Below are positions 1 to 14,581 of a DNA stretch of 15,840 nucleotides, one piece after another; position 1 is the first letter of the stretch, and each line of letters begins with the position of its first letter. Below the pieces are notes generated by a model. It was given only the letters and a program-made list of their open reading frames with translations. It was not told the DNA's origin and did no database searches. Both the position numbers and the translations under genes were made by a program. Source of the DNA: a virus (taxonomy: Duplodnaviria > Heunggongvirae > Uroviricota > Caudoviricetes); IMG/VR virus record IMGVR_UViG_3300023174_000136, positions 64,001-79,840 of that record. The stretch is one strand, 5' to 3'.

Positions 1-21
1 TTTTAATATCTAGGAATAACC

Positions 22-3767: not shown

Positions 3768-4481
3768 ATGATGCAATATACGATGCCGACTACTCGGCAA
3801 ATTGCCGGAAGAGAGGCAAAACTATTTGGACATGTATTTGAACACCGGGTGTGTGATGTTTTATCGTCACGATTCAAGCAAGATTTTATACACGACGGAT
3901 CTTGCAACACAAAAGTTGATATACGAAGTGAAGATGATACTATGCGATTTAGTGTTAAGAAAACTCCAACTGATCTGCAGGTAGGCTTGATTACTCAACA
4001 AAATTTTATTGAGGCAATGAATATCACAGATAATAAAATTGAACAATTCATATCTGAATTTTTCGGAGGAGACACCGTTGCATCGTTTTCTCGCCACAGA
4101 AAAAAAATAGACGAAATTGATCAGACATTAGTAGACGCATTTGAACAGTTCCTTGATAGTTCAAAAGAAGACATATTCAGAGTTGCAATAACGCATGGCG
4201 GACTAAATCACTACGATAATGTGAACTACATGCTTTTTCCCGATGTTAGGCATGATATTAGCACAATGAAGAAAATCGATTTATCTTCACTATTGGATGA
4301 CATTAAAAAAAATAGCGTCTGGAGATTTAATCCAACTACAATAGATTTGTTAATTGACGGTGTCAAGGTTATAAACATACAAATGTTTGGCAGTGGCAGA
4401 AAATATTCTAATGGTTATCATAGTTTGCAATTTCGAATTGCGTGTGGAAAAATAAATAGCCGACATGTATCGTGGCTATAG
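3768..4481 (+). CDS. putative PD-(D/E)XK type II restriction endonuclease, HinP1I/MspI-like
   Basis: GHVFEHRV helix, KVD...SVK catalytic-type motif, and C-terminal INIQMFGSG...HSLQFRI resembling the IQRKGG...LQFK region of HinP1I-like enzymes. Adjacent to a methyltransferase. Ends in TAG. Confidence 0.6.
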   Translation: MMQYTMPTTRQIAGREAKLFGHVFEHRVCDVLSSRFKQDFIHDGSCNTKVDIRSEDDTMRFSVKKTPTDLQVGLITQQNFIEAMNITDNKIEQFISEFFGGDTVASFSRHRKKIDEIDQTLVDAFEQFLDSSKEDIFRVAITHGGLNHYDNVNYMLFPDVRHDISTMKKIDLSSLLDDIKKNSVWRFNPTTIDLLIDGVKVINIQMFGSGRKYSNGYHSLQFRIACGKINSRHVSWL

Positions 4482-9065: not shown

Positions 9066-9228
9066 TGAAGTTGAAAAATTCGTAGGCGAACTCAGAGACC
9101 TCCGCGAACGTGTTACACGCTACGAAGAGGCGTTGATGAAGATTGAAAAGTTTGGACACGGGTACGGTCACGGTCACGGTTATACCTGTGCAGATATTGC
9201 AAAAGAAGCACTCAACCACACATTATAG
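9058..9228 (+). CDS. small hypothetical protein with coiled coil and GHGYGHGHGY tract
   Basis: Open frame overlapping the previous stop. Start uncertain (9040/9043/9058). Ends in TAG. Confidence 0.55.
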   Translation: MLNEVEKFVGELRDLRERVTRYEEALMKIEKFGHGYGHGHGYTCADIAKEALNHTL

Positions 9229-10510: not shown

Positions 10511-10902
10511 CATCAAAAATAACCTTAATTACCCCTCCTGATTTTTTTGAAAACGATAACTTTAGTATACTGTTGATGGGATTATCCGAAGAAGATCAAA
10601 TTGTGGCCAGCGAGTGGCTAGGAAATAATCCCATCCAAAAAAACATTAACGTTTATTTCTACAACGGAGAAACTGATGTTTCATGGCTTCTATATGCTGT
10701 TGCGAGGACCGATGTAAAGTTCCTAAGTTATAACAACAATCATGCTATATTAGATTTAATGGGTGGATATATTTTGAGTAAGCCTAATAGTTTTTATACT
10801 ACAGGCGATGTAAATCTAAAAATGTTAATAAACCACATAAATAATGGATTCGTGCATGATATTACTGAATTTTTAGAAAAGGTTTTCAATGAACAAGGAT
10901 GA
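10507..10902 (+). CDS. hypothetical protein (131 aa)
   Basis: ATGA overlap with the upstream gene and 14-nt overlap with clpX. Confidence 0.7.
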
Positions 10903-12133
10903 TAAGGACCGTGTCTGCAATTTTTGTGGTAAAGACAAACGTGATGTTGAAACACTAATTATAGGCACTGATGTAGGTATTTGCAGCGAGTGTGTCACTC
11001 TTTGTTCAAAAATTCTTAATGACGAGAAGGTCAAACAATTTCCAAATAATGATATCAGAAAAAAACTGAATCCCAGTAAGATCAAGGATTATCTTGATCA
11101 ATATATCATTGGTCAAGATAATGCAAAGATTGCATTATCGGTAGGAGTCGCTCAACATTATAAGAGAATATTTAATCCTGTTGATACTATAAAGTTGGAT
11201 AAAACCAATGTTCTGTTAATAGGACCCACAGGATGTGGCAAAACTGCGCTGGTTAAACATATTGCAGAATACCTAGATCTTCCAGTTGCAATCTGTGATG
11301 CTACTGGACTCACAGAATCCGGATATGTAGGCGATGATGTTGAAAGTGTCCTGTCAAGATTGCTCACAGTATCTAATGATGATGTTGATCGTGCTCAACG
11401 CGGAATTATTTACATCGACGAAATTGACAAGATTGCCAGAAAGGGAGAAAATGTTTCAATTACTCGCGATGTTTCTGGTGAGGGAGTTCAGCAGGCATTA
11501 TTGAAGATGATTGAAGGCACTATTGCAAGAGTTCCAATGGGCGGAAAGCGGAAGCATCCCAAAGGCGAAATGCAAGATATTGATACGACGAATATCTTGT
11601 TTATATGCAGCGGAGCATTCGTTGGTCTAGATAAAATAATTGAAAAACGTGACAATACCAGTTCTATGGGATTCAATAATCAAGTAATAGATCATTCAAA
11701 AAAGATAAATGTTTATGACGGACACACTACCAAGGATTTAATAAATTATGGAATGATTCCAGAGTTTGTAGGAAGATTTGGGCTCACTGTGAATGTTAAT
11801 GAACTTACTGTCGATGATCTAGTGTCAATTCTCAAGGATACAAAAAACAGTATCATCCAACAGTATCAATATATTTTCAAACTCGACGGCGTAGACCTAC
11901 AGTTTGAAGATGATGCATTGGTTGAAATTGCTGTTAAAGCCAAAGAACTAAAAACAAATGCTCGCGGCTTGAAACAGATCATTGAAAAAATATTAATTAA
12001 CTACCAATTTGAAGCCATGGACCTTGTTGAAAGAGGCTTGAAAAAAATTATGATAACTAAAGATACAGTCCTTAATAGCAAGGCCGTTTTAACATTTGAT
12101 AAAGAGAATGACGAAAAAATACAACAACTATAA
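10889..12133 (+). CDS. clpX: ATP-dependent Clp protease ATP-binding subunit ClpX
   Basis: C4 zinc domain (CNFC...CSEC), Walker A GPTGCGKT, pore-1 GYVG, Walker [12 protein letters not shown] loop, [17 protein letters not shown] docking loop, PEFVGRF, ARGLK. Confidence 0.95.
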
Positions 12134-12359
12134 TCGCGAGAATACTGTTTACTTCACTGGACTTAATGTAGAAGTAACGAATGATAATTTTAATGCCGCA
12201 CTACGAAAGTTTAAACGTAAAGTGGATGATTCAGGTGTATTAATTGAGTATGTAAAACGCAGACATTATGAAAAGCCTAGTGTTAAGCGCAGACGAGAAA
12301 AAGGTGCCGCGCGTTCTCGCTGGCTAAAAAAAGAAAGAAAGTTATCCTCTGATGGCTAA
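12108..12359 (+). CDS. rpsU: ribosomal protein bS21 (phage-encoded)
   Basis: VEV-x4[18 protein letters not shown] and [14 protein letters not shown] match the S21 signature. N-terminal extension. ATG12108 preferred. Confidence 0.88.
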
Positions 12360-12594
12360 AGAAATTCCCGAGCATAAAGATGCGCTCGGCCGATTGATTA
12401 CTATTGACAGTTGTGTTGCATATCCTGAAGGCAACCATCTTAAGATTGGTAAAGTTTTGAGACTCAATCCTAAAATGATCCGTGTCGCTGGACTAGGAAA
12501 TAGATACAAGTATGAATCAAACAAATATCCTCAAGATACTGTTGTACTGGATAGCTCCTATGTTACTATGTTCATGCTAAAAATTCCTTCTTGA
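12352..12594 (+). CDS. small hypothetical protein (possible SH3/KOW-like beta-barrel)
   Basis: 8-nt overlap with rpsU. HKDALGR...VAY...IGKV...KMIRV pattern. Confidence 0.65.
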   Translation: MAKEIPEHKDALGRLITIDSCVAYPEGNHLKIGKVLRLNPKMIRVAGLGNRYKYESNKYPQDTVVLDSSYVTMFMLKIPS

Positions 12595-12619
12595 CCATTG
12601 TTATACACTAAGCTATAAT
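12591..12619 (+). promoter_or_regulatory. sigma70-type promoter for the tRNA-containing unit
   Basis: TTGACC (12591-12596), 17-bp spacer, TATAAT (12614-12619). Confidence 0.85.
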
Positions 12620-12635
12620 AATCCTATAAACTAAT

Positions 12636-12710
12636 GCGCTCGAAACTGTATTGGTATAGAGAGGCCTCTAAAGCCTGAGGTAGCGGGTTCGAGTCCTGCC
12701 GAGCGCGCCA
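12636..12710 (+). tRNA. tRNA with CUA anticodon (amber suppressor-type), Arg-like body, weak D arm
   Basis: Acceptor GCGCTCG/CGAGCGC, discriminator G, encoded CCA. T arm GCGGG-TTCGAGT-CCTGC. Anticodon arm AGGC-[CT CTA AA]-GCCT, anticodon at 12668-12670. Confidence 0.82.
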
Positions 12711-12729
12711 TTTTTTAAAAGGAGTTCTT

Positions 12730-13137
12730 ATGACTAAGGTCGTGTACAATGATTGCTATGGTGGATTCGGCCTCTCGCATGAAGCTATCATGCGTTATGC
12801 TGAGATTAAGGGAATCACTCTGTATGTTAATGAGCAGAAGTTTGGCGGCAATTCCTACGCGACCGTTCCTTGGGATGAATATGATCGTATTCACGCTGAA
12901 TGCCTCGAGGAAGGCAACTATCGCCGTGCGAATGAGCTGTATTTCAGTGTCAGTGACATTGATCGCGCTGATCCTGCATTAGTTCAAGTCGTAGAGGAAC
13001 TTGGAGAAGCAGCTAATGACCAGTTTGCCAAGTTGAGGATCGAAGAGCTTTCGCCTGGTACTATGTATCGTATTGATGAGTACGACGGCAACGAGTCCGT
13101 CATGACACAAGATTCATATGACTGGCGAATTGCATAA
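12730..13137 (+). CDS. conserved phage hypothetical protein (KVV-N-CYGGFGLS ... R-DP-LVQVVEELG ... I-EYDG-ESV type)
   Basis: AAGGAG RBS and a motif pattern typical of a widespread uncharacterised phage family. Confidence 0.8.
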   Translation: MTKVVYNDCYGGFGLSHEAIMRYAEIKGITLYVNEQKFGGNSYATVPWDEYDRIHAECLEEGNYRRANELYFSVSDIDRADPALVQVVEELGEAANDQFAKLRIEELSPGTMYRIDEYDGNESVMTQDSYDWRIA

Positions 13138-13300
13138 TTATTGGGAACATGGAGTATGGAGTTGTATGCACTGTGGATGGATCCTAAAGTTTGGCCTTGG
13201 TCGGACTGATGTTGATACATGGTGTGACCGATGTCATGGACCACTAGATAAGATTAGAGAGTGCGCCTGTAGCTCAATTGGCCAGAGCAGGAAATTCTAA
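13118..13300 (+). CDS. small CxxC...CxxC zinc-ribbon-like protein overlapping tRNA 2
   Basis: CMHC and CDRC pairs. 20-nt overlap with the upstream gene. Stop TAA falls inside the tRNA anticodon loop. Confidence 0.5.
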   Translation: MTGELHNYWEHGVWSCMHCGWILKFGLGRTDVDTWCDRCHGPLDKIRECACSSIGQSRKF

Positions 13301-13339
13301 CCTTCCGGGTTGTGGGTTCGAGTCCCATCAGGCGCACCA
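13263..13339 (+). tRNA. tRNA with CUA anticodon in the best-pairing register (alternative: distorted Arg-UCU)
   Basis: Acceptor GCGCCTG/CAGGCGC, A73, CCA. D arm GCTC/GAGC. Anticodon arm GGAAA-[TT CTA AC]-CTTCC with an A.C pair at 31-39. T arm GTGGG-TTCGAGT-CCCAT. Confidence 0.85.
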
Positions 13340-13355
13340 TTTTTGGAAATAAAAA

Positions 13356-13634
13356 TTGAAACATATTAAGCACTGGCGTGTAATTGGTGAATTAACTGAA
13401 GATGAACTTCGTTGGTTGTACATTAATAAATTTGATGTTGAGGTAGAACGTGATGAAATACATTATACAGTATTTGGTGGACGAAAAGTAACTATGCCAG
13501 ACGTAACAAAAATTAATATACAATCATTTGGCAATACTGCTGAAACAATGTTGTGCTTAAAATTTGGTAATAGAATCGTGTTGTTTTTTGAACGCTGGGT
13601 AGATGAGTTTCACGGCTGCACTGTTCAATTTTAA
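13356..13634 (+). CDS. hypothetical protein (92 aa)
   Basis: TTG start after GGAAA. The ORF fills the space after the tRNA. Confidence 0.55.
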   Translation: MKHIKHWRVIGELTEDELRWLYINKFDVEVERDEIHYTVFGGRKVTMPDVTKINIQSFGNTAETMLCLKFGNRIVLFFERWVDEFHGCTVQF

Positions 13635-13697
13635 AATATGGACAAAGATTACATGATGTAACAGTTTTATATTTTCAATCAAAGCCTTTATTGAAAT

Positions 13698-13705
13698 TAT
13701 AAATA
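13698..13705 (+). promoter_or_regulatory. T4-type late promoter TATAAATA
   Basis: Exact TATAAATA octamer in an intergenic position about 80 nt upstream of ATG13787. Confidence 0.6.
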
Positions 13706-13786
13706 TAGTTGTAGTTAATTCGAACTACAAGCTGACAGACTTTAAACATTAAGCACTTAGTCTGTGTGCTGTATAAAGGAAGTAAA

Positions 13787-14581
13787 ATGATGTATTCTAA
13801 TAAGGCCGCCTGTGCGGTAAAAGTAAACGGCAAAGTCCTCCGTGAATTCAAGGACACAGTGTTCATCCCATTCGGGTCAGAGTACTCAATTTTAATTAAA
13901 AATTTAAATTCTAAGCGAGCAATTTTCAACATCTTCATTGATGGAGACAATATTGTTCCAAATGGTCTCGTTCTCAACGCAGGCCAAGAAATTGATCTAG
14001 AACGTGCCATTCGAAATAATAATCTAAACGAAGGCAATCGTTTCAAGTTTATTGAACGCACTGGTGATATTGAAGAACATCGCGGGGTTAAGTTAGAAGA
14101 TGGATTGATCCGAGTTGAATATCAGTTCGAAAGAGAATATCCAAAACCTTATTATCCGTATTACGGATTGAATTCCAGACCATATTGGGAATATTCCCCA
14201 TATCTTCAAAATTGTACTTATTCTGGAAATTATGTCAAAGGAATGACAGCTTCACAAGTCAGTGCATCTGACAACACGCTATTTGGTAGTGTTGCAAATG
14301 CAACTATGAATTCATTCAATGCTGTACCTCAAAATGACACCGGTATCACTGTACCAGGTAGCAAGAGTGAACAGAAGTTCTCGACTGTTAGTAACTTTGC
14401 GCTGGACCCTGAAAAGCACAGTATGATAATTAGACTACTAGGCGAAACAGCAGACAACAAGCCCGTTGTTGCTCCTGTCACGGTTAAAGCCAAACAAAAG
14501 TGTGGTACATGTGGTACAACAAACAAGGCAACTGCTAAATTTTGCCATAAATGCGGTACTGCTCTTGTAATTTACGCTTAA
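13787..14581 (+). CDS. conserved hypothetical protein with beta-rich N-terminal domain and C-terminal double-CxxC zinc ribbon
   Basis: AAGGAAG RBS before ATG13787. EYSILIKN...IDG...LER...FKFIE pattern. C-terminal CGTCG...KFCHKCG. Confidence 0.8.
   Translation: MMYSNKAACAVKVNGKVLREFKDTVFIPFGSEYSILIKNLNSKRAIFNIFIDGDNIVPNGLVLNAGQEIDLERAIRNNNLNEGNRFKFIERTGDIEEHRGVKLEDGLIRVEYQFEREYPKPYYPYYGLNSRPYWEYSPYLQNCTYSGNYVKGMTASQVSASDNTLFGSVANATMNSFNAVPQNDTGITVPGSKSEQKFSTVSNFALDPEKHSMIIRLLGETADNKPVVAPVTVKAKQKCGTCGTTNKATAKFCHKCGTALVIYA

Follow-up and report, generated by a model that had tools for sequence, protein, structure and literature searches.

Two tRNA genes with the anticodon CUA lie in a 15,840-nt stretch of phage DNA (hereafter the window), which forms the final 15.8 kb of the 79,840-bp IMG/VR record IMGVR_UViG_3300023174_000136 (G000; 22% complete according to CheckV). 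The comparisons described here argue that these genes, tRNA1 and tRNA2 (Table 1), encode dedicated amber suppressors, which would serve as private keys for a few amber-gated phage genes without any rewriting of the genetic code; we put the probability of this reading at about two in three. In this phage the gated product would be a protein of the PTH2 (peptidyl-tRNA-hydrolase-like) fold whose frame carries UAG at codons 3 and 94.

A PTH2-like gene with an amber gate

The gated gene was found in a 334,494-bp ENA contig, ERZ2680843 NODE_37, whose locus L172 encodes a zinc-ribbon protein identical to that of the window. Over 12,054 nt L172 matches the record at 100% identity, and it extends 8.7 kb past the record's end; the sequence read for this phage amounts to 88.6 kb, about a quarter of the genome. 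The gene lies 5.7 kb downstream of tRNA2, or 3.2 kb past the window end. Its start, at L172:15230, reads aaaggaaatgaaa ATG TCA TAG ATT GCA, with a Shine-Dalgarno (SD) sequence before the ATG, and the gate TAG is followed by 90 codons, the first 84 of which include no start codon. Gene callers miss genes built in this manner, and the frame falls in a 520-nt "gap" that holds no called gene. An earlier reading of the window from its letters alone (the sequence-only reading) had proposed conditional readthrough of specific genes elsewhere, and this proposal gains support from a gene just outside the window whose gate is conserved.

Conservation of the gate was seen in four of five relatives of the PTH2-like gene. 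A second contig of the same phage (L458, 100% identity) starts MS-TAG, and the corresponding starts are MA-TAG in L459 (84% identity), MK-TAG in L460 (58%) and MKS-TAG in L461 (44%), where a CUA tRNA lies ∼45 nt upstream within a 25-tRNA array. The fifth relative, L462 (39%), is ungated and its flank contains no tRNA. The L459 contig carries a CUA tRNA and a zinc-ribbon gene in the same order as in this phage. Among more distant homologs adjoining CUA tRNAs, 6 were gated (M-x-TAG) and 14 were not. In relatives, the residue aligned with the second TAG (codon 94) was Ala, Met or Thr, and the next 28 residues were conserved; judged by this alignment, the second TAG is predicted to be an internal codon too, so that the full frame would comprise 122 codons with two UAGs.

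The gated product scored 19.2 bits (E = 0.0014) against the PTH2 Pfam family PF01981, under the 23-bit cut-off, and two homologs scored 18.2 and 18.3 bits. An AlphaFold2 (AF2) model of the product had a predicted local distance difference test (pLDDT) score of 76, and its top 14 Foldseek matches in the PDB were all PTH2-type (among them 1xty, 3erj, 1q7s, 2zv3, 1rlk, 1wn2 and 2gax), with template-modeling (TM) scores of 0.51–0.67 for 13 and 0.47 for the 14th, and E values of about 0.01–0.08. The model thus assigns a PTH2 fold to the gated product. A PTH2 Pfam search of five genomes found nothing, since the PTH2-like genes are too divergent and the gated copy is located outside the record. A profile of the PTH2-like family proved too diverse for a scan of the collection.

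A PTH2-like paralog is located directly after a permuted transfer-messenger RNA (tmRNA) gene in the record, with its end at window positions 1–6. This paralog is ungated, and the phage therefore holds one ordinary and one amber-gated PTH2-like copy.

A second gated family adjoining CUA tRNAs

Open reading frames (ORFs) were clustered around 101 distinct CUA-tRNA contexts. The commonest neighbor was an unannotated ∼178-aa protein encoded on the same strand, a median of 434 nt downstream of the tRNA. For family members adjoining CUA tRNAs, 58 of 66 distinct starts consisted of an SD, ATG, 1–4 codons and TAG, and the conserved N-terminus (IEYACKD...) comes after the gate TAG. When starts were sampled by protein similarity only, regardless of tRNAs, 56 of 60 were gated and every gated start had an SD (56/56); for 38 of the 56, a same-strand CUA tRNA was present in the locus, between 26 nt and 2.3 kb upstream. 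No start in either set had TAA or TGA at the gate preceded by an upstream ATG, and the few TAA-opened starts were without such a leader. The printed translations show that the codon after the gate nearly always specifies Ile, Lys, Asn or Thr and so starts with A. By classical context rules, A after UAG favors suppression.

Pfam and PHROGs searches with the 178-aa family and the other neighbor clusters returned no function, and the family is absent from the cultured phages XacN1, Xoo-sp13 and RAS14. The copy in this phage lies ∼4 kb past the window end and begins with an SD-ATG whose start codon shares an ATGA overlap with the stop of the gene before it, and the L459 locus has a copy with the same kind of start, also ungated. 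A small ORF after tRNA2 was considered as a further member and is unrelated to the family.

Structure and identity of the two tRNAs

The sequence-only reading had placed CTA at the center of a 7-nt loop after U33 in both genes (CT-CTA-AA in tRNA1, TT-CTA-AC in tRNA2). Both loops were confirmed; ARAGORN calls the anticodon CTA in each gene, and in Rfam both genes score above the RF00005 gathering score of 29 bits. CCA is encoded in both, and no other tRNA was found across the 79,840-bp record. tRNA1 has discriminator G73, A8/A9, a short D arm and a G27·G43 mismatch that leaves a 4-bp anticodon stem; it groups with L185, L200 and L201 in a G73/CTCTAAAGCC subgroup. tRNA2 has discriminator A73 and an A31·C39 mismatch, which also leaves a 4-bp anticodon stem, and is otherwise canonical.

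Both bodies had been proposed to derive from tRNA-Arg(UCU) through a loop slipped by one base. tRNA2 does have an Arg(UCU)-like body and is 84% identical to the Xoo-sp13 tRNA-Arg(UCU), the loops (TTCTAAC vs. CTTCTAC) being shifted by one base. An Arg(UCU) origin is not supported for tRNA1, whose closest relatives are other CUA tRNAs (66–68% identity) and for which there is no clear parent tRNA. A recent slip is unlikely in view of the age and diversification of the CUA family, as judged from 43 distinct sequences with covarying stems (see below). By E. coli rules the identity elements of tRNA-Arg(UCU) are A20 and C35. The lack of A20 noted earlier was confirmed, with C20 in tRNA2 and U20 in tRNA1, and position 35 is U in both; neither tRNA shows the Arg(UCU) identity elements, and just the body of tRNA2 is Arg-like. 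Reading the anticodon in the UCU register would break the anticodon stem, and no alternative register pairs better when read from the sequence. Hallmarks of tRNA-Pyl are a 3-nt variable loop, a 6-bp anticodon stem and a small D loop. Both tRNAs have 5-nt variable loops and 4-bp anticodon stems, and the "Pyl" label assigned by ARAGORN reflects the anticodon alone. No recognizable synthetase identity elements were found in either tRNA.

A predicted sigma-70-type promoter ends 16 nt before tRNA1. It matches 11 of 12 consensus positions and is the best site in the interval 12000–13800. A strain that is ∼2% diverged has the same tRNA1, whereas its tRNA2 differs by T6C and C20T, variants that come from other lake metagenomes. 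The stretch or close relatives of it are present in lake or freshwater metagenomes of 11 studies, and a megablast search of the region against GenBank phages gave no match.

The presence of two CUA tRNAs and no others is far from chance, and tRNAs of this type are found repeatedly at the corresponding genomic position. Among 69 IMG/VR loci with the zinc-ribbon gene, 40 have a CUA tRNA on the same strand at a distance of ≤3 kb, and other tRNAs are almost never found there.

A phage-only family of CUA tRNAs

tRNA1 and tRNA2 belong to a phage-only family, of which 43 distinct sequences were analyzed and whose hallmark, GCCTCTAAAAC...GGTTCRA, is present in 120 or more IMG/VR contigs. The carriers are giant phages of freshwater and soil with an otherwise normal genetic code, and they include the Xanthomonas jumbo phages XacN1 and Xoo-sp13 and the Stenotrophomonas phage RAS14. 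All 7 acceptor-stem and all 5 T-stem pairs are kept across the 43 sequences with compensatory changes, most positions showing 2–5 standard pair types. CUA is invariant (43/43), A36-A37-A38 is present in 41, and the loops are CTCTAAA (30), TTCTAAA (11) and TTCTAAC (2). A73 is found in 38 sequences and G73 in 5.

The anticodon stem is less regular. Positions 31 and 39 are unpaired in 33 of the 43 CUA tRNAs, with C·A in 23 and A·C in 9 (32 A/C oppositions in all), compared with 8 of 122 sense tRNAs from the same phages (Fisher p = 1.8e-18). The stem has 5 bp in 5 of the 43 sequences and fewer pairs in 38; 94.2% of bacterial tRNAs have a 5-bp stem, and opening of the top pair reportedly raises UAG reading by CUA tRNAs (PMC13092985). 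Judged by E. coli rules, such CUA tRNAs tend to accept Lys or Gln, a balance that pair 31–39 shifts (PMC1483225).

XacN1 carries two tandem suppressors that are identical from position 8 to 65, with wholly different acceptor stems and discriminators (A73 vs. G73), as if two charging identities had been selected. These copies parallel tRNA2 (A73) and tRNA1 (G73). A look-alike of tRNA2 in Prevotella phage Lak-B1 (L246:302-376) was rejected as a family member, as its anticodon is not CUA; ARAGORN calls a four-base anticodon (tttt).

Genetic code of the phage and its relatives

Simple reassignment of TAG is excluded as far as the data reach. The sequence-only reading had described the long genes as intact in code 11 and TAG as an ordinary stop, and the wider data accord with both statements. 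Read in code 11, 93% of the record is coding; it contains the tail-fiber cluster with intact ORFs of 1138, 1814 and 1627 aa, and 8 of its 111 ORFs end in TAG. In the window, ORFs are closed by TAG at 2860-2862 and 4479-4481, and TAG is also present at 9226-9228; readthrough at these sites gives short tails only. Readthrough of the eight TAG-ended ORFs of the record as candidate fusions yielded tails of 0–46 residues and no fusions.

Three relatives found through the neighboring ClpX-like gene were compared: G001 (158 kb, one CUA tRNA), G003 (328 kb, 92% complete, no CUA tRNA) and G004 (353 kb, 99% complete, 49 tRNAs, one of them CUA). Each is ∼90% coding in code 11, and 71 loci, each 3 kb or longer, that surround family CUA tRNAs look standard-code. 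No code-15 signal, and hence no amber reassignment, was detected in the window, the record or the near-complete relatives. TAG-bridged long frames were in no excess over those bridged by TGA or TAA, and reading TAG through gained no more coding density than reading through TGA or TAA.

A first screen for conserved extensions in four genomes was swamped by antisense frames. For called genes, conserved extensions past stops were found in 3 of 40 cases for TAG, 6 of 77 for TGA and 31 of 251 for TAA, with no TAG-specific signal; the lone TAG/Trp case came from a kinase-like gene in which the C-terminus is shifted. Hidden TAG-containing ORFs were looked for by codon score, and none was found. Pfam searches of five genomes (PF00472, PF00749, PF00579) found no release factor and no glutaminyl-, glutamyl-, tryptophanyl- or tyrosyl-tRNA synthetase (GlnRS/GluRS, TrpRS/TyrRS). 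The first readthrough screens demanded long open frames on both sides of the stop, and they were consequently blind to start-proximal TAG codons. The sole gene with a conserved TAG stop encodes a 147-aa protein; it ends in TAG in 4 of 4 compared genomes, with a second stop 0–6 codons on.

Proposed mechanism

Gated genes are laid out as a normal SD and ATG, 1–4 sense codons, a UAG and then the conserved protein. In an uninfected cell or early in infection, the ribosome would stop after a peptide of two to five residues. Once the phage CUA tRNA had been made and charged by a host synthetase, the UAG would be read and the protein produced. Transcription, processing and charging of the two tRNAs, and suppression by them, are inferred. 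The loosened anticodon stem (A·C at 31·39 or an open 27·43) probably helps the tRNA to compete with release factor 1. The gates, and both UAGs of the PTH2-like gene, fall at sites that differ from one relative to another, so any inserted residue should do, and a residue that need not be fixed fits both the missing identity elements and the occurrence of A73 alongside G73 forms. Gating might provide timing, or a self-check that the phage's own translation parts are present. In a more general form, for which we consider the chances about even, standard-code jumbo phages would run a lock-and-key circuit in which a loosened-stem CUA tRNA is the sole route to a few UAG-locked genes.

Several observations weigh against this interpretation. 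The gate of this phage is not adjacent to the tRNAs, being 5.7 kb away, and it is the one gated gene found in the 88.6 kb read; the phage's copy of the 178-aa family, 88 aa long, is ungated. No gate follows directly after the tRNAs in the window, G001 or G004, and in G001 and G004, which carry a CUA tRNA, no gated gene was found and the PTH2-like genes have ordinary starts. No SD-ATG-x-TAG gate was seen in the first 50 kb of XacN1 or in the ∼3-kb loci around the CUA tRNAs of Xoo-sp13 and RAS14. TAG ends 7–11% of genes in carriers of CUA tRNAs and in the non-carrier alike, and backup stops after TAG are no nearer in carriers than in the non-carrier, which implies either weak suppression or tolerance of short tails. 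tRNA2 has C38 instead of A38, a change that by classical context rules should lower suppressor efficiency. In RNA run X13, contigs covered ORF 12787-12986 and the zinc-ribbon gene and none covered the tRNAs; as these are RNA-library contigs, neither expression nor silence follows.

Alternative explanations

Some of these points would suit general-purpose suppressors that cause low-level readthrough of all UAG stops, thereby buffering a very large genome against amber mutations or disturbing host proteins, with the gates as a tolerated by-product. We regard this as unlikely. It would account for the CUA tRNAs kept by G001, G004 and XacN1 where no gate was found, and it is consistent with the strong host-type promoter predicted for tRNA1. 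The permuted tmRNA of five related phages could clear ribosomes running off message ends, but it is found also in phages without a CUA tRNA. Carriers show neither depletion of TAG stops nor extra backup stops. The gates themselves have a fixed design (SD, ATG, 1–4 codons, TAG, nearly always then A) that uses TAG exclusively, and their retention over 44–100% protein identity argues for design as opposed to drift.

Non-decoding roles in the vein of the sequence-only reading were also considered: the tRNAs might be decoys or substitutes against host tRNA-cutting defenses, or an early recoding step without present function. Examples are known of phage tRNAs whose altered loops let them escape anticodon nucleases, and an anticodon stem that is odd yet conserved, together with absent synthetase identity elements, would fit such roles. 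A CUA tRNA is nevertheless unable to replace any sense tRNA, its invariant anticodon with A36-A37-A38 in 41 of 43 sequences matches what a tRNA that decodes codons beginning with U should have, and the matching UAG gates supply a decoding job, all of which makes a non-decoding role very unlikely. We consider it highly improbable that the phage uses an ordinary code 15, with the tRNAs serving TAG-rich late genes in the unread three quarters of the 334-kb genome. The record is just 22% complete, and known recoded phages place their suppressor in a block that keeps the standard code (Borges et al., bioRxiv 10.1101/2021.08.26.457843), but the tail-fiber cluster is already intact within the record, and G004 (99% complete) and G001 show no TAG-bridged excess, conserved readthrough or hidden TAG genes. 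No release factor gene was found, and XacN1 is a cultured phage with the standard code. Dedicated suppression of a few gated genes is the reading that we prefer.

The zinc-ribbon gene and other genes nearby

The zinc-ribbon gene downstream of tRNA2 carries no amber gate in this phage. Its product has 3717 homologs, almost all in large phages, and the cultured carriers are XacN1, Xoo-sp13, CM1 and RAS14 only; of these, XacN1, Xoo-sp13 and RAS14 were checked, and CUA tRNAs of the family type are present in each. A protein-atlas search with this protein returned hypothetical viral proteins only, and an AF2 model was unusable (pLDDT 41). In XacN1 and Xoo-sp13 the gene follows the tail-sheath gene, from which it is widely separated in the present lineage. 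Near the homolog, these two phages encode a small "glutamyl-tRNA amidotransferase" (GatB/YqeY-like). In RAS14, a gene annotated as "valyl-tRNA synthetase", about half the normal length, is located two genes upstream of the homolog.

Table 1. Location of the tRNA genes, the gated gene and other features. Positions without a prefix are those of the window; G000 is the complete record, and L numbers denote loci on other contigs.
Feature	Position	Strand	Remarks
tRNA1	12636-12710	+	Anticodon CUA; ARAGORN; Rfam RF00005, 39.5 bits
tRNA2	13263-13339	+	Anticodon CUA; ARAGORN; Rfam RF00005, 60.5 bits
Predicted sigma-70-type promoter	12591-12619	+	TTGACC, 17 nt, TATAAT; consensus match alone
Amber-gated PTH2-like gene	L172:15230-15598		122 codons; UAG at codons 3 and 94
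Zinc-ribbon protein (P0001/P0003 family)	13787-14581	+	C-terminal zinc ribbon alone recognized
178-aa-family copy	L172:15870-16136		88 aa; ungated
Small ORF after tRNA2	13356-13634
Small gene between the tRNAs	12730-13137		phrog_16527
bS21 ribosomal protein gene	12096-12359		Directly upstream of tRNA1; PF01165, 60.5 bits
ClpX-like AAA+ gene	10889-12133		Upstream of tRNA1; ClpX zinc finger
Permuted (two-piece) tmRNA	G000:63301-63589 (L242:402-690)		∼0.4–0.7 kb upstream of window start
PTH2-like paralog	G000:63686-64006 (L242:787-1104)		Ungated
147-aa gene	G000:47298-47741		Conserved TAG stop
XacN1 tandem suppressors	L146:36047-36122, 36130-36205		CUA tRNAs; A73 vs. G73
RAS14 "valyl-tRNA synthetase"	L243:1182-2531		449 aa

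Genes for a bS21 ribosomal protein and a ClpX-like protein precede tRNA1, and together with initiation factor 1 (IF-1) and tmRNA elsewhere in the record they make up a sizeable phage translation kit. The permuted tmRNA scores 87.5 bits against Rfam RF04321 (cut-off 47), has a tag ending in ...SVMEIAA according to ARAGORN, and is conserved in 5 of 5 related phages, including phages that lack a CUA tRNA. The small gene between the two tRNAs is 81–82% identical to copies in L004 and L005, the flanks of which are otherwise unrelated; this pattern suggests a small gene that has been shuffled or is mobile.

Comparison with known systems

Anticodon stems of 4 bp ("unpinned") promote stop-codon reading (Fakih et al. 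2026, PMC13092985), a subject to which Komine and Inokuchi (1990), as cited there, also belongs. The open 27·43 of tRNA1 and the open 31·39 of tRNA2 resemble this arrangement. Published cases involve the top pair, 27·43, mostly in near-cognate tRNA-Trp(CCA) reading UGA, whereas in the present family the anticodon is fully cognate and the favored opening is a bottom A·C pair (31·39). No description of the effect of a 31·39 opening on stop-codon reading was found in the literature searched. If our reading is confirmed, the family would supply natural, compact suppressor tRNAs whose stem features may raise efficiency.

Minigenes such as lambda bar release peptidyl-tRNA that Pth must recycle. Without a suppressor, SD-ATG-x-stop amounts to a minigene of two to five codons, like lambda bar; that the gated product here has a predicted hydrolase-type fold makes this parallel a lead, by analogy, and it is offered as such.

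Code-15 phages (crAss-like and Lak phages) read TAG as Gln (Borges et al., bioRxiv 10.1101/2021.08.26.457843). There, as proposed here, a phage CUA tRNA reads UAG in phage genes within a standard-code host, and recoding is thought to control when certain genes are translated, the same effect that we suggest for gating. Unlike in those phages, one or two UAGs stand right after the start in one or a few genes, TAG remains the ordinary stop for 7–11% of genes, and there is no gene for release factor 2 (RF2), a helper that TAG-recoded phages often carry, as they do synthetases. Full recoding is already published, and we class the gates as a variant of phage stop-codon recoding; if our reading is true, gating would be a simple evolutionary seed of the full form, possibly the first step to the recoding of crAss-like and Lak phages.

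The proposed logic is shared with bldA of Streptomyces, a tRNA-Leu(UUA) treated in PMC10732093. bldA limits translation of a few TTA-codon genes such as adpA. In both, one dedicated tRNA would act as the switch for a small group of genes that share one rare codon as a mark. The rare codon read by bldA is a sense codon, and its off state is a stall, whereas here the mark is a stop codon and the off state would be termination after a di- to pentapeptide. If confirmed, this would constitute translational control through a single stop codon and a private tRNA; our literature searches found no paper on start-proximal amber gates paired with CUA tRNAs.

Among the closest known systems is XacN1, a phage that uses the standard code and for whose two CUA suppressors no target could be identified (Yoshikawa et al. 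2018, PMC5852040). Suppressor tRNAs lacking a target have been reported for years in phages without an alternative code, including standard-code jumbo phages, and XacN1 is the textbook case. The CUA tRNAs of XacN1, Xoo-sp13 and RAS14, all standard-code phages, belong to the same family as tRNA1 and tRNA2, and the XacN1 anticodon arm (AGAGC-CTCTAAA-ACTCC, with C31·A39) is identical to that of IMG/VR members. XacN1 resembles the present phage in having two copies, one with A73 and one with G73; its tRNAs are located within a terminal-repeat tRNA array, and those of the present phage stand alone. Unlike XacN1, in which its authors found no target, the present phage has a gated gene that can be named, and a lock-and-key circuit, if true, would account for the suppressor tRNAs that are "orphans" in phages of the XacN1 type.

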